This document shows positions 1 to 56,394 of a DNA stretch of 64,000 nucleotides, piece after piece (position 1 is the first letter of the stretch; the number at the start of each line of letters is the position of its first letter). The translations under genes were made by a program, and so were the position numbers. The stretch lies in IMG/VR virus record IMGVR_UViG_3300008108_000006. One strand, written 5' to 3'. This stretch comes from a virus. Taxonomy: Duplodnaviria; Heunggongvirae; Uroviricota; Caudoviricetes. The notes under the pieces are model-generated. The model saw only the letters and a list, made by a program, of their open reading frames with translations. It was not told the DNA's origin and ran no database searches.

Positions 1-387
1 TGCAATTAAAACACCCGCATTGGCTTCAATAAAAGAAATATAACCATCTTCGATTTTAATAGTAAGATTTCTTTTTTTAGCCGATTTAATCATATCTTGA
101 GTTGGTTTTATATTAAGGTGTTTTATATGACCTGTATAAAGTGGATTTTTAATTATTAAATATGCTTTGGTTACTCTTCCATCATTTTGTTTAGCATAAT
201 ATGTAGCATCGACTTTGGATGTTGTAAACCATCCACCACCTTTGAATTCTCCACCACTATATGAACCACCATGATACATCACTAATGGATTTCCCTCATC
301 ATCAATGACTTTTGTATCCATAAATGGGAATTCGATGTTCTCAGTTTCCTCCCTCAATACTTTCCTTATATGTTCTTGTAAGTTCAT
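1..387 (-). CDS. Partial (runs off left edge) ART-PolyVal-like ADP-ribosyltransferase-fold protein with MNLQEHIRKVLREE leader
   Basis: Not in ORF track; hand translation MNLQEHIRKVLREETENIEFPFMDTKVIDDEGNPLVMYHGG...GGWFTTSKVDATYYA...AYLIIKNP matches the KVVDxxGNPLVxYHG / GxxFT / YLxIKNP pattern; ATG overlaps stop of upstream ORF (ATGA). Confidence 0.6.
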   Translation of the reverse strand, partial: MNLQEHIRKVLREETENIEFPFMDTKVIDDEGNPLVMYHGGSYSGGEFKGGGWFTTSKVDATYYAKQNDGRVTKAYLIIKNPLYTGHIKHLNIKPTQDMIKSAKKRNLTIKIEDGYISFIEANAGVLIA

Positions 388-1019
388 AATTTAATCTCCA
401 ATCTTTTATAATCTCCAATTGGATATATTGAGTATACCTCATCGGGTTTCTTCTTTACAATGGAAAAATAATATCCCGACCAATTACTTTCATCCTCGGG
501 TCTTGAAAATAATACTTCACCACTACCAATCTTATTTAATTCATCTTTAACTTTCCACCAATCAATTGGAAACCCAACTCCCTTTTTATATAATAATTCA
601 CCCCAAGTATCATAATTTAAAGAAGACCCTATTGAGTTTCTTGATTCCCAATCTCTCTCGGAATGCTTAACAAAAATATACTTATACCCATCGTCATCAA
701 AAACCCCCGCCGAATATACCTTATCAATATACTCCTTAACTTCATCACCATATCGGTCCATTAAATAATCCCCTAACGCATCTATCCAAGCATCAATACG
801 ATCATCCGAATCAAACTCGGTTGGAATTTTTCCCGAAGCAACATCAGTTGTTGATGACACAAGATTATCGTGAAAATTATCATAGTACTTGTGATTGTGC
901 ATAACCTCCGACTTTAATAAATCAAGAAAATCTGTTCCTTTAAGTCTCCTTACCACAAATGCCGGTAACTTTTTGGTTTCCTCCCTTAATATTCTTCTAA
1001 TATTTTCTTGTAAGTTCAT
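384..1019 (-). CDS. Hypothetical protein with MNLQENIRRILREE leader (putative internal virion protein)
   Basis: ORF track 384..1025 starts at TTG; ATG at 1019 lies 5 nt after TATTTAT and begins the shared leader. Confidence 0.7.
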   Translation of the reverse strand: MNLQENIRRILREETKKLPAFVVRRLKGTDFLDLLKSEVMHNHKYYDNFHDNLVSSTTDVASGKIPTEFDSDDRIDAWIDALGDYLMDRYGDEVKEYIDKVYSAGVFDDDGYKYIFVKHSERDWESRNSIGSSLNYDTWGELLYKKGVGFPIDWWKVKDELNKIGSGEVLFSRPEDESNWSGYYFSIVKKKPDEVYSIYPIGDYKRLEIKL

Positions 1020-1036
1020 AATCAATAAATATAAAC

Positions 1037-1792
1037 TTAATTAATCATTTTTTTACCCAATAGATTTTCTCTAAACATTCTTGTTTTCAAATCACGAGTC
1101 CAAGTTTTTTTTTGTTCAAAATTTAATTCGTTATAAATTCCAATCAAAGGTGGTGACATTCCTATCATATCCATAAAAGACAAATCATCCCAAATATCCA
1201 TATATTTGTTATATAATTGTTTAACGTTGTGAATCTGACCCTGAATTTCAACCTTGGTCATATTGACTGAAACATCTTTCAAATTTCTTGTTCCAAGCTC
1301 AGCTTGTTTTCGTAGTCTTTTTGAAAGATGACGGTGATTAAATGTATCATCAATCCAATGTGCTAATTCATGATGAATACTACCTTTAATTTTTTCAGGT
1401 GTAAATTCTTTTAGTATATAGATTCTCTGTTGTTCTTTTGATAATTTTTGAGCAGCAATTTCTATATTTCCGTGACCATAACCCAAAACAAAATTTTTCG
1501 CACTGTCATTTATTGAAATAAAAATTTTTTGAGTACTGGGTTGATATCCATTGAGCCCATTATTAATAATAATATCACAAGGATTCATTTCATTAGCTTT
1601 GATAGCATCTCTTGTTTGTAATATTGAAGTGTCAATAGTATCCCAACTAAACATATCATCTCTAACAATTCCTGTTTGACGAATCTCTTCGATATCTTTT
1701 TTGAAAAACATATCATACAATAACTCAACATCATCATCCACCAATGTTAAAACCTCATTTAATACTTTTCTTATGTGTTCTTTTAAATTCAT
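1037..1792 (-). CDS. Putative zincin-like metallopeptidase with leader
   Basis: HHELAH (HExxH) with downstream E (KVEIQG); leader MNLKEHIRKVLNE. Confidence 0.55.
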   Translation of the reverse strand: MNLKEHIRKVLNEVLTLVDDDVELLYDMFFKKDIEEIRQTGIVRDDMFSWDTIDTSILQTRDAIKANEMNPCDIIINNGLNGYQPSTQKIFISINDSAKNFVLGYGHGNIEIAAQKLSKEQQRIYILKEFTPEKIKGSIHHELAHWIDDTFNHRHLSKRLRKQAELGTRNLKDVSVNMTKVEIQGQIHNVKQLYNKYMDIWDDLSFMDMIGMSPPLIGIYNELNFEQKKTWTRDLKTRMFRENLLGKKMIN

Positions 1793-1816
1793 AATATAAA
1801 TACGATCTTGTTTAAC

Positions 1817-2332
1817 TTAACCCGCACAATCTGCTTGAATCTGTTTATTCCTCCACTGAATCCAATACTCCTGTAACCCCTCTTTTGTTCGTTTCAAATT
1901 ACTAATATCAAACTCATCACCAGGTAATAACACACCACTCAATTCAGATATTCTCCTATTAAGTTCAGGTGTGTGATTCCAACCTCCGACGTGATCAAAA
2001 GATGTATAAGCATCACAATTATTTTGAACATCAATAAACGGAATGGATAACTTATATGTAACATTCCCACTACCCATACCATCAGTTGACATTCTTATAT
2101 TATTCAAATCAACTTTCTTGTATTCACCCTGTCTGTAAAGTTCTTTAAGTTTATCACCAACCTTACCCGACATTGTATTTGAAAATTTATGTGCAATGTC
2201 ACCCATCTCATTAAATTCAGGTCCAATATACGTTCCATTACAACCATATTCAGTACAAGATATGTTGGATGTTTGTTCTGAGATTAAACCCATCATCTCT
2301 TTAATTCTTTCTATGTTTTCTTGTAGTTTCAT
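1817..2332 (-). CDS. Hypothetical protein with MKLQENIERIKEMMGLISE leader
   Basis: ORF track; leader nearly identical to that of 4210..4995. Confidence 0.7.
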   Translation of the reverse strand: MKLQENIERIKEMMGLISEQTSNISCTEYGCNGTYIGPEFNEMGDIAHKFSNTMSGKVGDKLKELYRQGEYKKVDLNNIRMSTDGMGSGNVTYKLSIPFIDVQNNCDAYTSFDHVGGWNHTPELNRRISELSGVLLPGDEFDISNLKRTKEGLQEYWIQWRNKQIQADCAG

Positions 2333-2335
2333 AAT

Positions 2336-4195
2336 TTATCTAATTAACATTTTCTTTAATAATCTTCTTATGTGTTCATATATACCGTACACACTACCTT
2401 CTGTTCCAAAGACACTATTTGGAAATAAATCACCTAACATCTTATACTTATACGCTGCGTAAAACGCTGAAGGACTTTTTCGTCTAAAAGCTACTATGTT
2501 ATTATTATATTTAGCAGCCTCATCTTTAAGTGTATCCTTATTCCACTTAGGATCTATCGGTCTTTCGGGGAATAATAACATAGGATCTATACGGTGAAAC
2601 AATGCAGCTTTATAATGTAACGGACTACCCGCACTAAATTCAAATGGATAATCATATTTAGCCGCTTCTCTTTCAATTTCACCAGGTGTCATATATGGAA
2701 TTTTCATTGGAAATAAATCATCTATCATTCCTCGAGTACGTGCCGCATCATAAGCACGACGAGAACCTTTTTTAAATTCATTTCTTGAATTATATTTACT
2801 AGCTTCTTGTTTAATTTCATCAGGTGTTACTCTTTTAACAGTACTTGGAAATAAATCGTTTAATATTTTATAATTATATGCCGCTTCATGAGCACGACGA
2901 TTACCTTTTTGAAATTCACTTCTTGAATTATATTTACTAGCTTCTTGTCTAATCAAATCTTCAGTCCATTTTGTAAGTTTTCTTCCTTCAGGAAATAAAT
3001 CATCTAACATTCCTCGTTTATATGCAACATTATAAACCGTAGGATTACCTCGTTTAAATTCTGCTTTTGAATTATATTTACTAGCCTCTTGTCTAATCAT
3101 ATCTTCAGTCCAGTTTGTAAATTTTCTTCCTTCAGGAAATAAATCATCTAACATTCCTCGAGTACGCGCTGTTTGATACGCCGAAGGACTACCTCGTTTA
3201 AATTCTACTTTTGAATTATATTTACTAGCTTCTTGTTTAATCAAATCTTCAGTCCATTTTATATATTTTACTTCTGGAAATAGATCATTCATCATACCAT
3301 ACCTTAGTCCTGCATGATACGCCAAAGGATTACCTTTTTGAAATTCACTTCTTGAATTATATTTACTAGCTTCTTGTTTAATCAAATCTTCAGTCCATTT
3401 TGTAAGTTTTCTTCCTTCAGGAAATAAATCATCTATCATTTCACGTCTAAGCGCCGCATCGTATGCCCCAGTACTACCTCGTTTAAATTCTGCTTTTGAA
3501 TTATATTTACTAGCTTCTTGTTTAATCAAATCTTCAGTCCATTTTGTAAGTTTTCTTTCTTCAGGAAATAAATCATCTATCATTCCTCGATTATACGCTG
3601 ATTTATACGCCAAACGATTACCTTTCAGAAATTCACTTCTTAAATTATATTTACTAGCTTCTCGTCTGATCATATCATCAGTCCATTTTGTAAGTTTTTT
3701 TCCTTCAGGAAATAAATCATCTAACATTCCTCGATTATATGCAATTGTATACGCCGAAGGACTACCTTTTTGAAATTCTTTTTTTAAATTATATTTACTA
3801 GCTTCTCGTCTGATCATATCATCAGTCCATTTTGTAAGTTTTCTTCCTTCAGGAAATAAATCATCCAACATTCCACGTCTATATGCCGCACCAAATGCCG
3901 CAATATCACCTTTTTCAAATTCTTTTTTTAAATTATACTTACTCGCCACTTGTCTGATCAAATCTTCAGTCCATTTTGTATGTTTTTTTCCTTCAGGAAA
4001 TAAATCATCTAACATTCCACGTTTATATGCGGTTTGATATGCCGAAGAACTACCTTTCTGAAATTCTACTTTTGAATTATATTTACTAGCTTCTTTTTTA
4101 ATTTCATCCTCAGTCCATTTTAATGGTCCGACATCTTCTAACAAAATACCTTCTGTTAAAACCCTTAATTGTAATTCTGTTAATCTTAATCTCAT
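2336..4195 (-). CDS. Tandem-repeat protein, 12 copies of ~48-aa KWTEDxIxxEASKY...GMLDDLFP helical repeat; no nuclease domain
   Basis: Repeats read directly from translation (10 well conserved, 2 degenerate at C-terminus); leader MRLRLTELQLRVLTEG. Confidence 0.85.
   Translation of the reverse strand: MRLRLTELQLRVLTEGILLEDVGPLKWTEDEIKKEASKYNSKVEFQKGSSSAYQTAYKRGMLDDLFPEGKKHTKWTEDLIRQVASKYNLKKEFEKGDIAAFGAAYRRGMLDDLFPEGRKLTKWTDDMIRREASKYNLKKEFQKGSPSAYTIAYNRGMLDDLFPEGKKLTKWTDDMIRREASKYNLRSEFLKGNRLAYKSAYNRGMIDDLFPEERKLTKWTEDLIKQEASKYNSKAEFKRGSTGAYDAALRREMIDDLFPEGRKLTKWTEDLIKQEASKYNSRSEFQKGNPLAYHAGLRYGMMNDLFPEVKYIKWTEDLIKQEASKYNSKVEFKRGSPSAYQTARTRGMLDDLFPEGRKFTNWTEDMIRQEASKYNSKAEFKRGNPTVYNVAYKRGMLDDLFPEGRKLTKWTEDLIRQEASKYNSRSEFQKGNRRAHEAAYNYKILNDLFPSTVKRVTPDEIKQEASKYNSRNEFKKGSRRAYDAARTRGMIDDLFPMKIPYMTPGEIEREAAKYDYPFEFSAGSPLHYKAALFHRIDPMLLFPERPIDPKWNKDTLKDEAAKYNNNIVAFRRKSPSAFYAAYKYKMLGDLFPNSVFGTEGSVYGIYEHIRRLLKKMLIR
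2430..4120 (-). repeat. Coding tandem repeat array, ~144-bp unit
   Basis: Recurrent blocks such as aggaaataaatcatctaacattcc and gaattatatttactagcttc at ~144-bp spacing; boundaries approximate. Confidence 0.9.
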
Positions 4196-4209
4196 AATTA
4201 ATAAATATA

Positions 4210-4995
4210 TTAATTATTAGGTCTTGATGCTTTATATCCTTTCGAATTCAAATAATCAATCAATTCATCCACCATACTTTTATCTTCTTCTTGAAAGGCG
4301 TGTCTAGATGGACTAACAATAATACCATTATTATTTATAATCGTGAAATTTGATAAACCAAACTTCTGTACTAATTTGGATAATCTTTTCCCTAATTGCT
4401 CACGAGTTAAATTATATTTCTTATAAACTTCGGAATCATCTGAAATTATAATATCAGGAACCACTTTACTCAAAGTCTTTCCTTTTTCGATAAACTCTTG
4501 AGATGCAACTTCCTTTTGACCATAATCAGGATTTTCACTCACACTTAACGACTCATCACTTTCAAGAACATTCATAGCCTTATCAACTAAACTATTATCC
4601 ACTTTAACGAAATATTGTATCACACCAAATGGAAATGGTACATAATACATACCAACCGAACAATCTATGTTGGCACGTTTTAACATTAAACCAATTTTCT
4701 TTAAGATATTATTAGTGTTATTCAAATTCGATTTTGAATGATAAAGCAATATCTGAGACGCTATCTTGTGTTCAAATGAGTTTGGTTCCACTATGTCAAT
4801 CTCAGAAGGTCTATTGAATTGAAAACTACTATCCTCACCACCTGATTGTATGTGTTTAGTGTATTCCCCCATTTTTTTCCTGTCCTCATATGATAATTCC
4901 TCACCCCGATTCATCTTGTCCAAAATGTCGTCGATGTTTTCGGTAATGAGCCCCATAACCTCTTTAATTCTTTGTATGTTTTCTTGTAGGTTCAT
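4210..4995 (-). CDS. Hypothetical protein with MNLQENIQRIKEVMGLITE leader
   Basis: ORF track; shared leader. Confidence 0.7.
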   Translation of the reverse strand: MNLQENIQRIKEVMGLITENIDDILDKMNRGEELSYEDRKKMGEYTKHIQSGGEDSSFQFNRPSEIDIVEPNSFEHKIASQILLYHSKSNLNNTNNILKKIGLMLKRANIDCSVGMYYVPFPFGVIQYFVKVDNSLVDKAMNVLESDESLSVSENPDYGQKEVASQEFIEKGKTLSKVVPDIIISDDSEVYKKYNLTREQLGKRLSKLVQKFGLSNFTIINNNGIIVSPSRHAFQEEDKSMVDELIDYLNSKGYKASRPNN

Positions 4996-5085
4996 AATAT
5001 TATAATATAATCTTCACTCTTTTATAATCTTTAATTTGATATATTGAATTTGTCACCTTGGGAACCATCATATCTGTTCTTGTCA

Positions 5086-6219
5086 CTATAAATTAGTTTC
5101 ATCAACAACTCTTACTATCGCTGGACCATATTGGTCGTTATACATATCAAACGATTTTGAACTTCTGTTTGGATGTCCTACAGGCAGTCCTCTTGTACCA
5201 AAGTGGGATTCTTTATGACCAAATTCTTTATCCATATCATAGAAATTATCAAAATAATAATCGTTGTAAACTTTGTCATCAAAATAACTATCTTTTACAA
5301 CTCTACCATAATCATCTGACCATAAATTTGGTATCCCTTGAAATCCGTAAAAAACTTTATATCTCCCATTTTCATCACCATCATACGAAGATGTTTCTTC
5401 CCTTAATATTCTTATTATAGATTCTTCAATATTATCCTTATTTTTTTTAGGAAATAAATCATCTAACATCCCTCGATTTTTAGCAGGTTGATACGCCGAA
5501 GAACTACCTTTCTGAAATTCACCTCTTGAAGCATATTTGCTAGCTTCTTGTCTGATTTTATCTTCAGTCCATTTTAATTTTCTTTCAGGAAATAAATCAT
5601 CTAACATTCCACGTTTGCGTGCCGCACTATATGCCAAATAACTACCTTTCTGAAATTCTCCTCTGTATTTGTACTTACTAGCTTCTCGTCTAACTTCATC
5701 ATCTGTCCATTTTAATTTTCTTTCACCAAATAAATCATCTAACATTTTATTTCTATATGCGAACCCGTATGCCGATTGACTACCCATTTGAAATTCTCCT
5801 CTTGAATTATATTTACTAGCTTCTTGTCTGACTTCATCTTCGGTCCATCGCTTATGTCCTCTATCACCATAATTCTCAAAATTCAAATCTTGCAAAATCC
5901 CAATTTTTGACGCAGCTTGATAAGCTTCAAAATTACCTTTTTTAAATTCACTTTTTGACTTATATTTACCCGCCTCTTGTTTAATCAAATCTTCAGTCCA
6001 TTTTGATGCTTTCCTTTCAGGAAATAAATCTTTCAACATTTTACGGTTATACGCCGCACCATACGCTGAAAGACTCCCTTTTTGAAAATCTCCTCTGTAT
6101 TTGTACTTACTAGCTTCTCGTCTGATTTCATCTTCAGTCCATTTTAATGGTCTAGCATCTTCTAACAAAATACCTTCTGTTAAAATCCTTAATTGTATCT
6201 CTGTTAATCTTAATCTCAT
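5086..6219 (-). CDS. Paralogous repeat protein (5 repeats) fused to an internal leader copy and an unrelated C-terminal domain
   Basis: N-terminus nearly identical to 2336..4195; 5 KWTED repeats; internal IEESIIRILREE. Confidence 0.85.
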   Translation of the reverse strand: MRLRLTEIQLRILTEGILLEDARPLKWTEDEIRREASKYKYRGDFQKGSLSAYGAAYNRKMLKDLFPERKASKWTEDLIKQEAGKYKSKSEFKKGNFEAYQAASKIGILQDLNFENYGDRGHKRWTEDEVRQEASKYNSRGEFQMGSQSAYGFAYRNKMLDDLFGERKLKWTDDEVRREASKYKYRGEFQKGSYLAYSAARKRGMLDDLFPERKLKWTEDKIRQEASKYASRGEFQKGSSSAYQPAKNRGMLDDLFPKKNKDNIEESIIRILREETSSYDGDENGRYKVFYGFQGIPNLWSDDYGRVVKDSYFDDKVYNDYYFDNFYDMDKEFGHKESHFGTRGLPVGHPNRSSKSFDMYNDQYGPAIVRVVDETNL

Positions 6220-6812
6220 AACTCTCTTTTAATTAAATTATAATAGAATTCACTAATCCTATCAGGTGTTGTAATGTTGTTCGCTCTTAATTGTGTTCTT
6301 ATTTGATTAATAAAACCAACCAACTGAATAAGTTGTACATTTTTATACATTTGAGGACTCTTGAAGTGTGGTTTAATTAAACCCATCTTCTGAAGTTCCC
6401 TAATCTTTCTTGATCCAAAATCATCCGCAACGTTCTCACTATACTTCATAAACTTGGCAGCATCCATAACCGATACCTCCTCATTATAAAAATCATACAT
6501 AGTTTTCTCACCATACTTCTTATATTGATATTGATGTGCTATCTCATGAAAGATAACAAACAACGCCATCTCCAAACTAGTATTTAATACCGACTTATTA
6601 ATTAACACCCCATTATGTAATGCCGCCCCAAGTGCTTGATACTTAAAATCCGCAAACTCTATTTTCTGACAACCCGACTTCTCAATGAAATCAACCAAAA
6701 AATCTGTAACCTCATCCGACATATTATATGTGGATCTTAATTTATCAATAAAAGGACCCAAATTGGTGGTTTCCTCTCTTAATATTCTTCTTATGGTTTC
6801 TTGTAAGTTCAT
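6216..6812 (-). CDS. Putative zincin-like metallopeptidase with leader
   Basis: IFHEIAHQ (HExxH) and downstream ENVADDFG; leader MNLQETIRRILREE. Confidence 0.6.
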   Translation of the reverse strand: MNLQETIRRILREETTNLGPFIDKLRSTYNMSDEVTDFLVDFIEKSGCQKIEFADFKYQALGAALHNGVLINKSVLNTSLEMALFVIFHEIAHQYQYKKYGEKTMYDFYNEEVSVMDAAKFMKYSENVADDFGSRKIRELQKMGLIKPHFKSPQMYKNVQLIQLVGFINQIRTQLRANNITTPDRISEFYYNLIKREL

Positions 6813-6821
6813 ATATCGATA

Positions 6822-7736
6822 TTATTTTTTTAAATCGTTTTTATTTAGGGTTGAAATAAGTCTATGAAAATCTTCCCACATTTCCACTTGTTCTTCCGTA
6901 TATTCATCCCAAGGTTCTCCAGTAAATCTTTCATAAAAGTTTTCGGCGTTTTTATTAAAATTATTATCAAAAATAAAATAACCAATATAATTTCCCTCTA
7001 CAGGTTTTTTATATCTTACTTCTTGTATATATTCAAAATCATCTACCCTAACGTGGGATAAATCTTTATTTGGTTTTTCGTTAATGGAATATAAATATAT
7101 TTTATTATTACCTGTTAATGAACCATAATGATTTAACATACTCCAAACACCCAATAAAGCACCACCAATAGTTTTTGAAGCAGATATTTCTGGTGTTGTA
7201 CTTCTTGCAATAATATCATCTGTGTGAAACTCAGGGTTACCATCATCATTTAATATTCTTCTTATTGATTCATAAACATTAGTCTTCTTCGGTGTATTAT
7301 CATTCCCACATTTGTGACAAACATATGGATCTTCACCACCATCAGATAGATACCAAAACCATCCACAATCCTCACAAACAACTGCCGACTCACCCTCTAT
7401 CGCATAATACCTATCACGTATCTGATCATAGTAATGTTCACTGAAAAAATTATATAAATCATCCCACATTTCGGTAAATAATTCACTGTTATAATATTCC
7501 TCATCTGAAAAGAAAGTATCCACCATATATGAAACAACCATTTTATTGAATTTATATTCATCCATAAAATTCCACTTGTCCTTATTCTTTGCAAACTTCT
7601 TGGACGCATCTGTTAACGCTTCCTTAAATATTTCATCAATCTTCTTAAAGTCTAACCTTCTCAAAAGATGCTTTGGGATTTCAGATTCTTTTAATAATCT
7701 TCTAATCGTTTGTTTAATATTTTCTTGTAAGTCCAT
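6822..7736 (-). CDS. Multidomain protein: leader, helical domain, CxxC-CxxC zinc ribbon, second leader copy, possible ART-like domain
   Basis: CEDC...CHKC; internal VYESIRRILND; C-terminal PEISASKTIGG...QEVRY. Confidence 0.55.
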   Translation of the reverse strand: MDLQENIKQTIRRLLKESEIPKHLLRRLDFKKIDEIFKEALTDASKKFAKNKDKWNFMDEYKFNKMVVSYMVDTFFSDEEYYNSELFTEMWDDLYNFFSEHYYDQIRDRYYAIEGESAVVCEDCGWFWYLSDGGEDPYVCHKCGNDNTPKKTNVYESIRRILNDDGNPEFHTDDIIARSTTPEISASKTIGGALLGVWSMLNHYGSLTGNNKIYLYSINEKPNKDLSHVRVDDFEYIQEVRYKKPVEGNYIGYFIFDNNFNKNAENFYERFTGEPWDEYTEEQVEMWEDFHRLISTLNKNDLKK

Positions 7737-7751
7737 AAACTATAAATATAC

Positions 7752-7822: not shown

Positions 7823-8191
7823 CTAACTCATAACATATAAAGAAGAACCTTTACTATGGATCAATTCAAACTTATGGTCATCAACATTCCAACCGTTTAA
7901 GACCCAATTGGGTTGTACCCTCGGATTATACTTAACACGAACATTACTAAGTTCAATATCTGGATCAACAAGAACCTGAACATCCTCACATAAAACCCAA
8001 GCACAAACCGACTTGTGTTGCCCATTAAAGATCTTCTCCGCTGTTGATTTTTGATTTTTCAACTGACAACCTTTCATAATCAATTGAACAACTTTCGGAT
8101 CAAAATACTTAACCTCCGTTGGATAAGTAATTTTCCATTTCATATAGTTCTTACCTTGACTAAGATTAAACCTAACTTTGATCCGTTTCAT
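7823..8191 (-). CDS. Hypothetical phage protein
   Basis: ORF track 7823..8215; ATG at 8191 (MKRIKVRF) lies downstream of the promoter at 8218-8248. Confidence 0.7.
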   Translation of the reverse strand: MKRIKVRFNLSQGKNYMKWKITYPTEVKYFDPKVVQLIMKGCQLKNQKSTAEKIFNGQHKSVCAWVLCEDVQVLVDPDIELSNVRVKYNPRVQPNWVLNGWNVDDHKFELIHSKGSSLYVMS

Positions 8192-8248
8192 AATCTTGTT
8201 ATTTTTCTTTAACAATACAAAGATACTAGAAAAATTCTAACCTACAAA
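8189..8248 (-). repeat. ~60-bp promoter/start cassette, copy 1
   Basis: Identical to 8991-9049 except for one T in a T run. Confidence 0.9.
8218..8248 (-). promoter_or_regulatory. Bacteroidota-type housekeeping promoter TTTG-N19-TATCTTTG
   Basis: Exact -33/-7 consensus and spacing. Confidence 0.8.
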
Positions 8249-9056: not shown

Positions 9057-10064
9057 TTAGATAATTTCCATACTCTCAGAAAATAAGATTTGTTCCACCA
9101 TCGGACAATTATTACGAATAATAATGTTAAACCATTCCTTGAACTTCCCCTTATCTTTGAAGTCAAAGGTAATTCCATCATAATTAAGTTTGAAAACTCC
9201 AACCTTTTCTAAAACATCAACCTTATTCACAACCATATTTGTAACCCCATTTATGTTTGCCGCTTTGATAATCATATCCATATCGGTCCAAGCAATCTGT
9301 CTTGGTCTTCCCGTTGTGGAACCAAACTCATTCCCCACTTCCCGGATTTGATTAAACACATCATCGGGTTGTTCAAAGGTCTTAGCACCAACATAAGTGT
9401 TATACGCCTTACATACACCATAAACCTTTCTAATCTTTTGTGGCGGAACTCCGTTCAATACCGCAGAACCAATCGTACAATGTGATGATGTTACATATGG
9501 ATAATCACCCCAATCAATATCCAATTCAAAACCTTGTGCCCCCTCAAATAATATCCGAACATCAAAATCATTCTTGTGAAATACATTATAGATATCACAT
9601 ACATAATTCCGAATCTCTTCAACATCCTCAGCTCTAATACCCTGACGATAATACTTGTCACGATATGCAGGACCATTACCTGTTTTGGTTGTTCCAATCT
9701 TTGAATCCTTGGAATCCTCGGCAATGTGATCATCGGTAATAATATGAACCCTCTTGTCAATGAATAAGTATTCCCTAACACGAATACCCTTACTCTCCAA
9801 ATCCTTAATCTCACTCATAAGTGAATTGATATTCACAACACACCCAGGCCCAATGATGGATATCAAACCATTAACAATCCCCGATGGTATGTAATGAGTA
9901 ACAATCTTCATATCACCAACATAAATGGTGTGACCAGCGTTTCCACCACCATTATAACGAACAACGTGTGTATATTCACCACTTTGAGTTAAATAATTAC
10001 AAACCTTACCTTTTCCAGTATCACCCGCTTGTAAATCAACTATTACATCTGCAAATTCTAACAT
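9057..10064 (-). CDS. purA: Adenylosuccinate synthetase (short form)
   Basis: GDTGKGK P-loop, GGGNAGHT, EGAQG, DWGDYPYVTSS, GSTTGRPR, NKVD. Confidence 0.93.
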   Translation of the reverse strand: MLEFADVIVDLQAGDTGKGKVCNYLTQSGEYTHVVRYNGGGNAGHTIYVGDMKIVTHYIPSGIVNGLISIIGPGCVVNINSLMSEIKDLESKGIRVREYLFIDKRVHIITDDHIAEDSKDSKIGTTKTGNGPAYRDKYYRQGIRAEDVEEIRNYVCDIYNVFHKNDFDVRILFEGAQGFELDIDWGDYPYVTSSHCTIGSAVLNGVPPQKIRKVYGVCKAYNTYVGAKTFEQPDDVFNQIREVGNEFGSTTGRPRQIAWTDMDMIIKAANINGVTNMVVNKVDVLEKVGVFKLNYDGITFDFKDKGKFKEWFNIIIRNNCPMVEQILFSESMEII

Positions 10065-10383: not shown

Positions 10384-10716
10384 TTATAATGGAAAGGTTT
10401 CGCCAACAAATTGGTTAGGAACAGGAATGGTTTGAATGGTGTTTATACCCTCAATTTGAAAGGTTTCACCAACCCATCTACCCATAAGTGATTCTAACAT
10501 AGATAGTTCCATAGGAAGGTATCGAAGAATATTTTCACTAATACCACGATAGATAAATAAGTCTTTATTTTTCAAACCCAAATGACCATCTCCTTCAGGA
10601 TCTATTAACCAAATAATCCCAAATATATCTTTTCTCCATTCATATTTCTTAAACTGAGTTTCCATGAATTTTTTGAATATTGGATATAACTTTTCTTCTG
10701 TTACCTTGACTTTCAT
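10384..10716 (-). CDS. Tandem paralog 1 (MKVKVTEEKL family)
   Basis: Start refined to ATG 10716 by alignment with paralogs; TATTTAT upstream. Confidence 0.75.
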   Translation of the reverse strand: MKVKVTEEKLYPIFKKFMETQFKKYEWRKDIFGIIWLIDPEGDGHLGLKNKDLFIYRGISENILRYLPMELSMLESLMGRWVGETFQIEGINTIQTIPVPNQFVGETFPL

Positions 10717-10769
10717 AATGATAAATATCCTTATAATGGAAAGGTGTCTCCAACACTCAACGGTGATGG

Positions 10770-11069
10770 TCAAGTCATCACCTGGACGATTAACCCCTCA
10801 ATTTGAAAGGTCTCTCCAACCCATCTACTCATAAGTGATTCTAACATAGATTGTTCCATAGGAATGTAGCGAAGAATTCCTTCACTAATATCCACATAGA
10901 CATGTAAATATCTACCTTCCACCAATTCCATTTGACCATATCCTTCAGGATCCATAAAAAATATCCCACCATTATTTTTATCTCTTCTCCATTCATATCT
11001 CTTAAACTGAGTTTCCATAAATTTTTTGAATATTGGATATAACTTTTCTTCTGTTATTTTAACTTTCAT
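10770..11069 (-). CDS. Tandem paralog 2 (MKVKITEEKL family)
   Basis: Near-identical N-terminus; TATTTAT upstream. Confidence 0.75.
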   Translation of the reverse strand: MKVKITEEKLYPIFKKFMETQFKRYEWRRDKNNGGIFFMDPEGYGQMELVEGRYLHVYVDISEGILRYIPMEQSMLESLMSRWVGETFQIEGLIVQVMT

Positions 11070-11099
11070 AATGATAAATATTCTTATAATGGAAAGGTT

Positions 11100-11420
11100 T
11101 CACCAACCTAATGGTTTCAAAACGAATGGATTCATTTGGGGATTTAACACCTCAATTTGAAAGGTCTCTTCAACCCATCTACTCATAAGTGTTTGTAACA
11201 TAGATTGTTGTATAGGAATGTAGCGAAGAATTTTATCTTTAATACCACGATATATCCATAATTTTTTGTTTTTTTCCAATTCCAAATGACCAAATCCTTC
11301 AGGATCTATATACCAAATGGAATCATATTCATCTTTTCTCCATTCATATCCCTTAAACTGAGTTTCCATGAATTTTTTGAAAACTGGATATAACTTTTCT
11401 TCTGTTACTTTAACTTTCAT
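11100..11420 (-). CDS. Tandem paralog 3 (MKVKVTEEKL family)
   Basis: Near-identical N-terminus. Confidence 0.75.
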   Translation of the reverse strand: MKVKVTEEKLYPVFKKFMETQFKGYEWRKDEYDSIWYIDPEGFGHLELEKNKKLWIYRGIKDKILRYIPIQQSMLQTLMSRWVEETFQIEVLNPQMNPFVLKPLGW

Positions 11421-12199
11421 AACATTTCATTAACTCTGTTTATAAAGTTATCTATCTTTTCGGTATATAAACTTCTAATTATAACCTCAACAATTTCTGA
11501 TATATTAACATACATAGTATCATATACCATAGATTCATCCTCATCTTCATCACCAATTATCGGATAGAATGATGAGTAATACTCATTTGTTATATCATCT
11601 GTAAGATCCAAAATAAACCTTTCACTATCAAAATAAACAAGATTATCAAAAGGATTAGATCTTAACTCTTGAATCAAATCATTAAAGAAAATATCACTTT
11701 CCAAACGTTCATCCACATAATTAGTAAGTACTGACAATTTACGTAATATTTGTTGTTTAACACCTTCTTTTGTTGTAATGGATTCCATAATAGTTTCTGT
11801 TATTTCCGTATTTTTTTTGAATATTGAGATCATCTCAACGGTATGAATTTTCTCAATCTTATAACCAACATCAGGTGGAAGTTGTTTGATTAACGATTTC
11901 CAAGCCCTTTCCGCCTCATCAGACCTAAACGCCGATTGAATGATGATATTCGGCATTTTATCCAATAACTCCAACATCGCTTTCTTATATAAACCTCTAC
12001 CCTTAAATTCTTCCTTTATTGTTGCCATAACAACCATATAATGTTTTTCATCAGGTGTTTCCAATGTCATATCACCAACCGCCTCACCATCACTCATAAT
12101 GAACACCTCAATGAATCCATCCAATCGTTCAATTTGAATTTCTTCATTTATTACACCCATAACCTTACGGATTCTACCTATCTCTTCATTTAATCTCAT
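11417..12199 (-). CDS. GNAT-like acetyltransferase domain protein with leader
   Basis: TIKEEFKGRGLY resembles GNAT acetyl-CoA motif A, then RSDEAERAWKSL; leader MRLNEEIGRIRKVMGVINEE. Confidence 0.55.
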   Translation of the reverse strand: MRLNEEIGRIRKVMGVINEEIQIERLDGFIEVFIMSDGEAVGDMTLETPDEKHYMVVMATIKEEFKGRGLYKKAMLELLDKMPNIIIQSAFRSDEAERAWKSLIKQLPPDVGYKIEKIHTVEMISIFKKNTEITETIMESITTKEGVKQQILRKLSVLTNYVDERLESDIFFNDLIQELRSNPFDNLVYFDSERFILDLTDDITNEYYSSFYPIIGDEDEDESMVYDTMYVNISEIVEVIIRSLYTEKIDNFINRVNEML

Positions 12200-16723: not shown

Positions 16724-18313
16724 TTAAATATCAATCTCAGAAAGTCTTTCTCTCACAAGTTCATTAACAATATCATCGTCGGGTGATGGATACCACCTAT
16801 CATCATAATCAAATGTTGGTTTTTCAATATAGTCTTGTTCCATCAAAGTATCAAGAACACCATCTAAATTGTAACCTCCGGTATTTTCATAAGAACTACT
16901 ATAAGGGTAAAAGTGTTCATCAAAAATATCCATAACAGATTCATCATCCACATCCACCAAGTTTGATAAATCAACCTCTATCTCAACACCACCATCATCA
17001 AATCTAGAAACATTACCATATTCCTCTAAGGCTGATTTTAATAGGGATTGCATATGATCAACATAATCGTCACCATCAGCAGAATTTATTGCAGATCTAA
17101 TAGCATTCATTATCTCATAATCACCATCAACCTCTTTAATAGAATCTTTCAAATCTAAATCTTCATCCAATTCAATATTATTTTTTTGTGCCATTTGTCT
17201 AACGATATCCCAAAGTTTATTTTCAGTTTCTTTGTCAATCGTGTAACTAAAAAAGCTTGAAGTATCTACATCATTATCATATCCCCACAAATCCCAAGGA
17301 GCTACCATAATTTCTTCAAAAATATGTACCGTTCTCACGTCTCCGTTTCTGTTACGGTATCTATTTTCCCAACCTCCATTAACATAATATTTTATATAAT
17401 CAGGATCTAACTTTAACGTAAAGTTTGTCGGTAACGGTGGAAGTTCAATAAGACCCATTTTAGCTAACACCCTTTGCATTGATTTGGATTCAAATAAATC
17501 AGGTCTTTCTTGATATAATTGTTTAATTGTTTCATCGGGAAGATCACTTATTTTGAAATCTTGTTGTGCCCCATACTCAGAACCAAACTTTTGAATTAAA
17601 TAACCATCTTCACCATCCATTACAGAAAACAATGGCACAATATATTGATGGTATTTATCACTAGGTTTCGAGTTTTTAGGACCTTTTAATTGATACAAAA
17701 CATTATCATCACCAATCGCCGCAGTTAATAATGACTTATTTATTTTAAATTTATCATTTAATGGAACATATTGTCTTAATGAATATAAATAACCATATGA
17801 ACTTCTTCCACAATGTCCCATCCTTTCACATTCTTCAGGTGAGTTATTTGTGTTCAAATCCACCCAATATAAACCATTACCATTTTTATCTCTAAAATCT
17901 AAAATCACATCGTGATCCTCAACATAATTAATTTGACCTTCACCAACTTCTAAACTATCGTGCCATTGTTTTGATAACGAATATAACTCATTAAACGTGT
18001 TATTTTTGTAAGGTTGTACATTACCATTTAGTCCTACCCTAATCCAATCCATTATTGATTGGATTCTTTGTCTAATATAAAGAGGAACTTCGTATTTTTC
18101 TTTGAGCATGTTTTCCATTTCCAATGGTGTTAACATATTTCGCATGTTAGTATTCAAATAGTCAATAACTTTGTTCCCCATCCAAACGGATAATGGTCCG
18201 CACAATTCATCTAATGTCTCAGCCGCCTTCTCACTAAAATTAAGCTTATCTATTAGAATTTTTTTCTTTGACGCTTCTAATATTATTTGTCTTATGTTTT
18301 CTAATAATTTCAT
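16724..18313 (-). CDS. Large leader-bearing protein with PcfJ-like motif
   Basis: SKQWHDSL...EECERMGHCG...YSLR...QLKGPKNSKP fits the PcfJ-like ExxxMxHC pattern; TATTTAT upstream. Confidence 0.55.
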   Translation of the reverse strand: MKLLENIRQIILEASKKKILIDKLNFSEKAAETLDELCGPLSVWMGNKVIDYLNTNMRNMLTPLEMENMLKEKYEVPLYIRQRIQSIMDWIRVGLNGNVQPYKNNTFNELYSLSKQWHDSLEVGEGQINYVEDHDVILDFRDKNGNGLYWVDLNTNNSPEECERMGHCGRSSYGYLYSLRQYVPLNDKFKINKSLLTAAIGDDNVLYQLKGPKNSKPSDKYHQYIVPLFSVMDGEDGYLIQKFGSEYGAQQDFKISDLPDETIKQLYQERPDLFESKSMQRVLAKMGLIELPPLPTNFTLKLDPDYIKYYVNGGWENRYRNRNGDVRTVHIFEEIMVAPWDLWGYDNDVDTSSFFSYTIDKETENKLWDIVRQMAQKNNIELDEDLDLKDSIKEVDGDYEIMNAIRSAINSADGDDYVDHMQSLLKSALEEYGNVSRFDDGGVEIEVDLSNLVDVDDESVMDIFDEHFYPYSSSYENTGGYNLDGVLDTLMEQDYIEKPTFDYDDRWYPSPDDDIVNELVRERLSEIDI

Positions 18314-31113: not shown

Positions 31114-31473
31114 ATGTTATATCCAGTTAAAATAAGAATAAATGACCAAGTTTTCAAATGTGAAGTTAGACACACTAAAAGTGACTTGGAAAAAGGTATG
31201 ATGGGAAGAACATTTCCCGATACTAATTATAGTATGTTGTTTATTATGCCAACATCAGAAAGACAAAGTTTTTGGATGAAAAACTGTGTTCAACCATTAG
31301 ATATACTTTTTATATCGGGTGTTAAAATTACAACAATACATAAGAATTGTCCTCCTTGTGATGAAGAACCTTGTGAAACTTATGAAGGTTACGGTGGTTT
31401 TGTGTTAGAATTAAACGGTGGTGCCTGTGATATGTACGGAATAAACGAAGGTGATAGAATTGAGATTATTTAA
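31114..31473 (+). CDS. DUF192-family protein
   Basis: GMMGR...MLF...FWMKNCVQPLDILFI...VLELNGG. Confidence 0.85.
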   Translation: MLYPVKIRINDQVFKCEVRHTKSDLEKGMMGRTFPDTNYSMLFIMPTSERQSFWMKNCVQPLDILFISGVKITTIHKNCPPCDEEPCETYEGYGGFVLELNGGACDMYGINEGDRIEII

Positions 31474-31832
31474 TCCCAATGAACACTCATATAAGGCCTA
31501 CCATCCTTAAGATGTAACTCACCCATTCCCCAACCTTCAACATTACGAAACGTAACAGATCCACCGGACTTAACATCTACCATATCCTCAACTCTTACAA
31601 CCATACCTGGTGTTAATTTTTGGTTCTTACCTTTTGGATCTAATACAACGGTACCATTAACATTCATCACCGTTAATTTATTTCTATTAACCGGTTTCAA
31701 ACTCTTTTCAACAATTTTACCGTCATTAGTCATAATGGATCCAAATTTAATTCCCGATCCAACTTGTTCACTTATTACTTTTTTTACTAATCTAACTAAA
31801 TCAGATTCAGTAAGTCTTACAATTTTACTCAT
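31470..31832 (-). CDS. Hypothetical protein with MSKIVRLTESDLVRLVKKVISEQ leader
   Basis: Leader motif. Confidence 0.65.
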   Translation of the reverse strand: MSKIVRLTESDLVRLVKKVISEQVGSGIKFGSIMTNDGKIVEKSLKPVNRNKLTVMNVNGTVVLDPKGKNQKLTPGMVVRVEDMVDVKSGGSVTFRNVEGWGMGELHLKDGRPYMSVHWD

Positions 31833-56103: not shown

Positions 56104-56394
56104 ATGAAAAAAATTGTCACATTATCAGAATCACAATTAGTCGGTTTAATTGAACGTATTGTGAATGAAACATCTAAGGATAAACAGTTCATTCAAAAAG
56201 CAGTTGAGAAACAAGAGAAGAAAGGAACTTCCGGCAAATTCGGTGCTTGGTGTAAGAGAAATGGTCTTGCATCTGCAGATGGTGAAGTAACTATGAAGTG
56301 TATCAACAAAGCGATGAAGTCCGATGACTCTTCTGTTGTTAAAATGGCTAACTTCGCCAAAAACATTGGTGGTTTTAAGGGTGCTAAACATTAA
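56104..56394 (+). CDS. Small leader-bearing protein
   Basis: MKKIVTLSESQLVGLIERIVNE; TATTTAT at 56087-56093. Confidence 0.65.
   Translation: MKKIVTLSESQLVGLIERIVNETSKDKQFIQKAVEKQEKKGTSGKFGAWCKRNGLASADGEVTMKCINKAMKSDDSSVVKMANFAKNIGGFKGAKH

Follow-up and report, generated by a model that had tools for sequence, protein, structure and literature searches.

Why do nine neighbouring phage genes whose products are otherwise unrelated all begin with short, shared peptides that end in glutamate? The question is raised by one end of a 64,000-nucleotide stretch of DNA from a tailed phage (IMG/VR record IMGVR_UViG_3300008108_000006), the whole of which we call the window. According to the listing of open reading frames (ORFs), positions 1-7736 are taken up by nine consecutive minus-strand ORFs. 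Gene 1 extends at its C-terminus past the window start, and the next gene beyond this cassette (7823-8215) has no leader. An earlier reading of the letters alone (here, the sequence-only reading) had described the nine genes as short Glu-ending leaders attached to unrelated cargo, and the ORFs and their N-termini confirm that description. By comparing the cassette with related phages, we found that cargos have been exchanged behind these leaders, with breakpoints exactly at the leader ends. As to what the leaders do, we give a probability of roughly 0.55 to the reading that they target their cargos to the capsid and are then removed by a protease that cuts after the Glu.

The genes share their leaders in groups (Table 1). 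Two types had been recognized in the sequence-only reading; the sharing stands, but the count is three types plus one variant. Leader A, MNLQE[NHT]IR[RK][IV]LREE, starts at 387, 1019 and 6812, and has weaker forms at 1792 (ending in ...VLNE) and at 7736 (the looser variant MDLQENIKQTIRRLLKE, ending in ...RRLLKE). Leader B, M[KN]LQENI[EQ]RIKE[MV]MGLI[ST]E, starts at 2332 and 4995. Leader C, MRLRLTE[LI]QLR[VI]LTE, starts at 4195 and 6219, in two genes that are paralogues along their entire length. The leaders span 14-22 residues and are amphipathic, and the last residues of every type are [L/I]-x-Glu. In AlphaFold2 (AF2) models of genes 3 and 8, residues 1-15 form a detached helix before a confident domain, with a predicted local distance difference test (pLDDT) score below 50.

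As the same reading had stated, the leaders also match at the DNA level. Over the first 45 nucleotides, the type-A leaders have identities to each other of 0.69-0.91, the two of type B 0.89 and the two of type C 0.93, all above the 99.9th percentile (0.58) of the background given by other gene starts in the window (mean 0.35); leaders A and C compare with each other at background level. The DNA words that had been quoted occur exactly at leaders, TTCTTGTAAGTTCAT at 373, 1005 and 6798, and CTTAATATTCTT at 985, 5402 and 6778. Leader-like copies are found within genes as well: in gene 7 (5392-5427), in gene 9 (7242-7274, degenerate) and in gene 5 (2348-2380, YEHIRRLLKKM). Outside the cassette, five more genes of the window are headed by leader A, leader B or a fourth type, leader D (M-K-K-I-V-R-L-T-E-S-D-L-x-R-L-V-K-x-V-I-x-E); the last rows of Table 1 give such genes.

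Table 1. Cassette genes, promoter-like motifs and further leader-headed genes, with positions in the window
Feature	Position	Strand	Leader and content	Remark
Gene 1	1..387	-	Leader A (MNLQEHIRKVLREE); ART-PolyVal ADP-ribosyltransferase domain	PF18760
Gene 2	384..1019	-	Leader A; helical 'xLPxxxxRRL' module; C-terminal domain without known family	ATG at 1019 taken as start
Motif ATATTTAT	1025..1032	-		5 nucleotides upstream of gene 2
Gene 3	1037..1792	-	Leader A variant MNLKEHIRKVLNE; conserved protein of ~235 residues	Invariant HHELAHWIDD (1346-1375)
Motif GTATTTAT	1796..1803	-		One-base variant, upstream of gene 3
Gene 4	1817..2332	-	Leader B (MKLQENIERIKEMMGLISE); Cys-containing domain without known family	
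Gene 5	2336..4195	-	Leader C (MRLRLTELQLRVLTE); ~12 helical 48-residue repeats	Leader-like relic at C-terminus
Motif ATATTTAT	4201..4208	-		Upstream of gene 5
Gene 6	4210..4995	-	Leader B (MNLQENIQRIKEVMGLITE); domain without known family	
Spacer	4996..5085	-	Relic of a gene-2-like 3' end; short ORF ending ...SIYQIKDYKRVKIIL	Immediately before the leader of gene 6
Gene 7	5086..6219	-	Leader C; five 48-residue repeats; internal leader EESIIRILREET (5392-5427); C-terminal module (5086-5391)	
Gene 8	6216..6812	-	Leader A (MNLQETIRRILREE); zincin-like HExxH domain	HEIAHQ (6531-6548)
Gene 9	6822..7736	-	Leader A variant; 'RRL' helical module; CxxC...CxxC zinc ribbon (7302-7376); degenerate internal leader YESIRRILNDD (7242-7274); C-terminal domain	
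Motif ATATTTAT	7742..7749	-		Upstream of gene 9, at the cassette start
Leader-B-type gene	11417..12199	-	MRLNEEIGRIRKVMGVINE	Outside the cassette
Leader-A-like gene	16724..18313	-	MKLLENIRQIILE; 529 residues	Promoter-like motif upstream
Leader-D gene	31470..31832	-	MSKIVRLTESDLVRLVKKVISE	
Leader-D gene	56104..56394	+	MKKIVTLSESQLVGLIERIVNE	

Related loci were sought with gene 3. A locus search with the single sequence found nothing, and a profile search gave 39 loci, all at most 57% identical. Closer relatives were reached via gene-3 homologues, namely L069, whose genes are 89-93% identical, and L066, L067 and L068 (80-89%). The sequence-only reading had proposed looking for cargo exchange behind constant leaders in relatives, and had named fixed gene content as an argument against its view. 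We found that gene content around gene 3 differs in L069, L066 and L068. In L069, a gene-2 paralogue stands in place of gene 4, an additional leader-A gene of 93 residues lies between genes 3 and 2, and gene 2 is followed by a 97-residue protein instead of the ADP-ribosyltransferase (ART). In L066 and L068, there are 6-8 tandem genes between the synthetase gene (described below) and gene 3. These are paralogues with the same leader, in another dialect (MKIENIIRRVLRE), and the same cargo family.

The edges of the differences from L069 coincide with the leaders. A nucleotide identity of 91-93% collapses to noise at the 3' end of two leaders. At the first of these junctions, identity stays at ~98-100% from the 3' end of gene 3 across the spacer that carries the promoter motif and on through the leader of the next gene (its first 44 nucleotides), and only noise follows. 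At the second, homology stops right after the leader of the gene that follows gene 2 (gene 1 here). At a third junction, homology starts at the ATG of gene 3. Because identity breaks exactly at leader ends or at the ATG, we conclude that cargo was exchanged behind constant leaders; because the drop between such close relatives is abrupt, it reflects replacement and not divergence. L069 also keeps a short relic in the spacer between genes 6 and 7, whose sequence matches the C-termini of gene-2-like proteins and which is the footprint of an old exchange.

The leader is portable in a second sense, in that one cargo family occurs with different leaders across genomes. Leaders A and D, MKLIEIFKTLINE and further leaders, or in some cases extra N-terminal modules, precede the domain of the gene-8 family, and its junction E13 E14 T15 is at least 90% conserved despite the different leaders. 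Leaders also tend to resemble others of their own genome. The gene-3 leader has a mean best match of 6.4/12 to its neighbours' leaders in the same genome, versus 5.3/12 in other genomes (29 loci, Wilcoxon p 0.035), and is clearly in its neighbours' dialect in L088, L091 and L095. We regard modular exchange at the leaders as established with high confidence.

The array extends well beyond the window. A search for the DNA pattern of leader A, with all synonymous codons allowed, gave 39 stretches on ~30 IMG/VR contigs, including complete genomes of 257-308 kb. The same pattern reversed had zero matches in four genomes with 1-7 forward matches. Small hidden Markov models (HMMs) of the leaders, run over ~0.62 Mb of related DNA, matched 160 times for type A, 49 times for type B and 44 times for type D. 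A Met start is present in 141 of the 160 type-A matches, and 16 distinct copies are internal to long open frames, where they fall at module junctions. The 206 distinct cargos in these loci fall into 114 clusters, of which 88 are singletons and the largest has 38 members. In G005, a genome that we fetched whole, at least 37 of 321 genes (~12%) have one of three leader types.

Some of the related proteins join several leader-headed units. The sequence-only reading had likened the cassette to a polyvalent protein split into modules. This holds in that relatives encode fused forms with leader-like peptides between the modules, but the modules of the window are separate ORFs with their own starts, the only two-module fusions in the cassette being genes 7 and 9. 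We count gene 7 as a fusion because its C-terminal module is a separate leader-headed gene in L008 (82% identity, own leader MRIEETIKRILREE). L001 encodes the gene-2 cargo joined to a second unit of leader and cargo. When 1.84 billion representative proteins were searched by phmmer with the N-terminal module of gene 9, 36 clusters were found, and some of their members are polyproteins with two to three tandem leader-module units. The HExxH domain of gene 3 occurs in P0225 behind a GNAT domain (Pfam Acetyltransf_1, above the cut-off), and in P0226 behind a weakly ART-like domain (similarity to ART-PolyVal below threshold). In both, the modules are linked by a leader-like ...L-x-E junction.

At the opposite protein end, many leader-headed proteins of the relatives L008, L026, L004, L009 and L001 share a basic, Cys-containing C-terminal tail, EKCWxGYTQKGMKTMFGKxYPNCVKKxKK. 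This tail looks like a second portable module; none was seen in the window's cassette.

Which kind of phage carries these genes bears on what the leaders might do. A Peptidase_S77 prohead protease (T4 gp21-type) and a major capsid protein of the Gp23 type are encoded by all five complete genomes with leader A. Four of these five genomes have proteins 58-62% identical to the SbcC-like protein of the window. In the cultured-phage collection, the SbcC-like protein has matches of only ~25%, and no relative of the cassette was found there by nucleotide or protein search. The head genes of G005 follow the order known from T4: terminase and portal come first, then a small gene in the place of gp67/gp68, the protease gene (L050:11778-12563, minus strand), a scaffold-like acidic gene and the capsid gene. 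The small core-position gene begins MKFGLIKSRIENILTE. The known maturation site of T4 gp23, FLTE|AEIGG, aligns with FLINE|ATGEG of the relatives' capsid proteins, and I-N-E|A is thus their predicted maturation site. We give this site as a prediction because the alignment is short and gapped there.

Two peculiarities of these head genes are worth recording. The portal ORF of G005 (L050:14400-18422, minus strand) encodes 1340 residues and has an HNH-endonuclease-like insertion in its N-terminal third, with PHROG matches to HNH at residues 115-371 and to portal at 957-1236; the insertion may represent an intein or a fusion with a homing endonuclease. In G004 (the contig of L004, a 269-kb record), the protease and capsid genes are each present in two copies, ~200 kb apart, which could be due to a concatemer formed in assembly, to chimerism or to a long repeat.

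Leader genes and head genes also have an upstream motif in common. The motif ATATTTAT(A/T) precedes many starts by 4-37 nucleotides; in the window and in G005 alike, the 40 nucleotides before starts are 17-18-fold enriched in it. In G005 the motif stands ahead of the genes for terminase, protease, scaffold-like protein, capsid and tail sheath, and many further leader genes are preceded by it as well. Because it stands before head and tail-sheath genes, it is probably the late promoter of the lineage. The motif is often only ~5 nucleotides from the ATG, so the mRNAs would be near-leaderless. An extra promoter-like copy lies at 7091-7098, within gene 9 and upstream of its C-terminal domain. This copy may be a chance occurrence or an internal promoter.

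We favour capsid targeting because a T4-type protease and capsid occur in five of five relatives, all leaders end in [L/I]-x-E, and the predicted capsid site is I-N-E|A. In the mechanism we propose, the unit would be a 14-22-residue amphipathic leader ending L/I-x-Glu, followed by its cargo. The leader would bind the assembling scaffolding core, like the T4 capsid-targeting sequence (CTS), and the shell would then close around the core. The S77 (gp21-type) prohead protease would cut after the leader Glu and release the mature cargo. The freed cargo (ADP-ribosyltransferase, HExxH enzymes, repeat proteins and small helical modules) would remain with the DNA and be ejected into the next host. In the products of fused genes, the internal leaders that remain would give the protease sites at which to cut the polyprotein into its modules. 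At the DNA level, the leader coding sequence is where cargos are exchanged, and it fits a homology handle, such that cargos turn over rapidly and leaders are homogenised per genome into 'dialects'. The cassette would then most likely be part of a hyperplastic late-gene array for prohead-loaded proteins of a T4-type jumbo phage. A counter-defence role of the cargos is plausible by analogy with IPI*, Alt and polyvalent proteins (PMC5512222).

Several points weigh against capsid targeting. Both targeting and cleavage are predictions from gene sequences, and the phage collection contains no cultured relative. The protease and capsid genes were seen in relatives, not directly in the window's own genome, and the capsid alignment is, as said, short and gapped at the cleavage site. 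The tagged genes of G005 represent many species for one capsid. The [LI]-x-E motif is common in these Glu/Lys/Ile-rich proteomes, and it is not depleted within cargos versus shuffles (observed/expected 1.00; 1.15 for all genes). Leader C in the window is common to two paralogues only. In addition, conservation at synonymous sites means that part of the leader constancy is a DNA-level phenomenon and not selection on the peptide. Depletion of [LI]-x-E in cargos had been a candidate line of support for cleavage; it is suggestive at most, and we do not use it as evidence.

The alternative that survives best, though we think it unlikely, is that the leader is a portable N-terminal helix unrelated to the capsid interior. 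Such a helix might dock to a chaperonin, a membrane, the tail or the baseplate, serve in oligomerisation, or be a degradation or regulatory tag, and its [LI]-x-E would be incidental. That ~12% of G005 genes are tagged, which is many for capsid contents, suits this explanation. So does the 'RRL' family, in which a unit of ~105 residues is repeated with the leader as its first helix, so that the leader may there belong to the fold. Moreover, the N-terminus of the T4 capsid protein is reported to direct proteins to GroEL, according to a reference cited in PMC10052503. However, leader types that are distinct in sequence would all have to end in [LI]-x-E by coincidence, and the junction is kept where leaders are swapped. 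The protease and capsid module of the lineage is of T4 type, its capsid protein has a predicted cleavage site that matches, the leader genes share their promoter-like motif with head genes, and the leader-headed ART parallels T4 Alt. These observations argue for capsid targeting over a helix with another destination.

It is less probable still that the conserved 5' part of the coding sequence acts chiefly as a nucleic-acid element, either a translational or regulatory element of late mRNAs or a recombination site, and that the peptide itself is without function. This explanation draws on the constancy of leader A as DNA. We compared the codons of 115 distinct leader-A DNA sequences from ~30 contigs with genome-wide usage, and found strong preferences for Asn AAC (86% in leader A versus 25% genome-wide), Leu CTA (71% versus 9%), Ser TCC (91% versus 7%), Ile ATA (97% versus 35%) and Arg AGG (86% versus 12%). 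Unusual synonymous codons are thus kept across these contigs, leader DNA is nearly identical within a genome, and the homology breakpoints lie at leader ends. On the other hand, the 16 internal copies of leader A keep the same codons, with the ATG alone replaced. Because copies without an ATG keep them, the codons are not conserved for the sake of translation initiation. The same peptide is also written in different codon dialects (AAC-TTA and GAG-GAA in the window, AAC-CTA and GAA-GAA in G003 and G005). Leader types with unrelated DNA share the design of a helix plus [LI]-x-E, and variable positions change conservatively (R/K, I/V, S/N/H/T). These features count against a purely nucleic-acid role.

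Codon constancy and breakpoints together therefore indicate recombination and gene conversion within the leader, and the DNA of leader A fits a short homology handle for phage recombination. In T4-type recombination, homology patches of less than 50 bp suffice, and PeSL elements mediate modular shuffling in T4-type phages (PMC2839356). A tentative extension, which we think has perhaps one chance in three, is that the leader combines its targeting role with those of a protease site and of a DNA 'attachment site' in an integron-like cassette system, permitting in-frame swapping of virion-delivered effectors. If the leader did have both roles, the fusions might be polyproteins diced in the capsid, and 'polyvalent proteins' and single tagged genes might be interconvertible states, a suggestion that is equally tentative.

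Ordinary tandem paralogy, in which repeated duplication of one gene left similar N-termini and a diverged remainder, would suit genes 5 and 7 (true paralogues), the tandem paralogues of L066 and L068 and the cargo cluster with 38 members, but is very improbable for the array as a whole, given cargos that differ in fold or family (ART-PolyVal, zincin-like, a second unrelated HExxH protein, repeats, zinc ribbon), orthologous cargos behind different leaders, and an identity of ~98-100% across a junction that falls abruptly to noise at the leader end.

The closest known counterpart of the array is found in T4 and its relatives. The internal proteins and Alt of T4 enter the core via an N-terminal CTS of 10-20 residues, which gp21 removes after Glu (PMC5694885). 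The internal proteins of T-even phages are diverse anti-restriction or defence-countering proteins with the CTS alone in common (PMC3012670). The genes described here resemble the T-even IPI/IPII/IPIII locus in having a short N-terminal peptide with a gp21-type L/I-x-E end on unrelated small proteins, in being clustered in a hypervariable locus, and in belonging to a lineage with gp20/gp21/gp22/gp23-type head genes. By contrast with the T4 CTS (~10 residues), their leaders have 14-22 residues and come in several types per genome. There are tens of tagged genes per genome and more than 100 cargo clusters in our sample, whereas T4 has about four tagged genes. Internal leaders in polyproteins and the use of leader DNA as a demonstrated exchange point are further differences from T4. 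Packaging and cleavage are proven for T4, whereas here they are predicted from the genes. The array is most likely a much expanded, recombining form of the T4 CTS and internal-protein system, to judge from these shared features. Gene 1 resembles T4 Alt, a packaged ART and the prototype of injected host-modifying enzymes (PMC5512222), in that a T4-type phage carries an ART domain preceded by a short leader at the N-terminus. However, gene 1 matches ART-PolyVal and not the Alt family, and its C-terminus is outside the window.

Polyvalent proteins (Iyer et al. 2017, PMC5512222) are similar in their domains, which include ART-PolyVal, HExxH peptidase-like hubs and, as in the fused relatives, GNAT. 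They are also similar in their predicted delivery with the DNA and in the multi-module polypeptides of the relatives. They differ in carrying two to fifteen effector domains per polypeptide, whereas the window's modules are separate leader-headed genes. Moreover, they rely on an embedded MPTase, whereas a site of the head-protease type marks the module boundaries here.

The S77-family proteases of phiKZ and SPN3US likewise cut after x-X-Glu (PMC5694885), and many internal or ejection proteins of phages of this type are processed in this way. Diverged paralogues among them (gp53/gp54) have conserved propeptide N-termini that are believed to direct these proteins to the prohead (PMC5694885, PMC10052503). 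These propeptides, unlike our leaders, are mostly longer than 100 residues, have an A/S/G-x-E motif and have not been reported as a portable tag of unrelated families. Finally, the PeSL cassettes of T4-type phages (PMC2839356, PMC4122927) also place short conserved sequences beside variable hyperplastic-region genes, and so provide homology for shuffling. PeSLs, however, are intergenic early promoter-terminator elements, whereas the handle here is formed by the 5' end of the coding sequence in late-type genes and encodes a functional-looking peptide. A literature search, itself incomplete, found no paper that describes recombining leader arrays of several types from uncultured jumbo phages. 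What our analysis adds is base-level breakpoints, the codon evidence, internal-leader polyproteins, and ties to ART, HExxH and GNAT fusions.

If capsid targeting is correct, each new host would receive dozens of proteins from uncultured aquatic giant phages. Injected proteins could then be recognized in metagenomes by the short leader as a sequence label, offering a route to new host-takeover and anti-defence factors, mostly without known family. In-frame exchange at the leader would reshuffle this arsenal fast while targeting is kept. The leaders could also serve as capsid-packaging tags for non-model phages, as the T4 CTS does for T4.

We now turn to the individual cargos. The ART-like domain that the sequence-only reading proposed for gene 1 is borne out by a match to PF18760 (ART-PolyVal) above the cut-off (E 6e-11; 43.7 bits against 31.2). 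Its suggestion of another ART in the C-terminus of gene 9 fared less well: there is no Pfam match to this region at E up to 10. Among the 100 Atlas clusters nearest to the C-terminus of gene 9 (6822-7241), 55 carry Arr-ms (language-model score 0.94, 160 shared features), which we regard as a lead only; one homologue of this region was found. GNAT domains, which had also been mentioned, were not found within the cassette.

The two HExxH proteins that had been noted, genes 3 and 8, do have their motifs, which are invariant in both families. The families are not detectably related to each other (hhalign probability 4%), and neither gene matches Pfam MPTase-PolyVal; MPTase-PolyVal clusters appear as structural neighbours of an HExxH cargo at weak TM-scores of 0.30-0.33. 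Gene 3 is the conserved anchor gene of the cassette, with orthologues at 80-95%. Its family has 199 clusters with invariant H141, E142, H145, D148 and D149. The AF2 model of gene 3 (pLDDT 83) had no match in a Foldseek search against the PDB, and a wide structure search (VIA) matched only its C-terminal helical or winged-helix-like part. Atlas structural rows for gene 3 include zinc peptidases, at TM-scores of 0.35 or less.

The gene-8 family is larger (at least 392 sequence clusters), and H89, E90, H93 and E126 are invariant in 32 sequences. In its AF2 model (pLDDT 86), the HExxH helix comes after a 3-strand sheet. Nearly all of the top 50 VIA rows are HExxH zincins, mostly metallopeptidases, with modest Z-scores of 4.6-5.9. 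Structural neighbours include IrrE/PprI, ArdC (Z 5.6), ERAP1 and Wss1, and, in AFDB, SprT, IrrE, ATP23 and M48. With an HExxH helix after a three-stranded sheet and a downstream Glu ligand, the modelled gene 8 protein has the features of a zincin, and is a putative metallopeptidase.

Genes 5 and 7 contain the two repeat arrays that had been reported, with a period of ~48 residues and ~12 and 5 units, respectively. No match to these repeat proteins was found among solved structures. Gene 5 matches phrog_20046 (function not annotated; E 2.5e-95), and its orthologue in L069 is 59% identical with a different repeat number. Genes 2, 4 and 6 matched no known family. In L069, gene 2 has a 90%-identical orthologue, with paralogues elsewhere, and gene 6 has a 92%-identical orthologue with an intact leader. 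A gene 4 homologue in L030 sits behind another N-terminus. Outside the cassette, no Pfam family matched the 529-residue leader-A-like protein.

The window as a whole is AT-rich (~31-35% GC), with a constant strand bias. Its phage genes include an endolysin, the SbcC-like nuclease subunit and a PurZ-like adenylosuccinate synthetase. The synthetase homologue (9057-10064, minus strand) has as its best PHROG the PurZ-type '2-aminooxy adenylosuccinate synthetase' (phrog_1211, E 6.6e-71), which hints at a diaminopurine (Z-base) genome. This gene is 89% identical in L066 and L068; tried as a synteny anchor, it was absent from G001, G002, G003 and G005. Beyond it, at 10384-11420 (minus strand), lie three tandem small paralogous genes that all begin with MKVK[VI]TEEKLYP[IV]FKKFMETQ.

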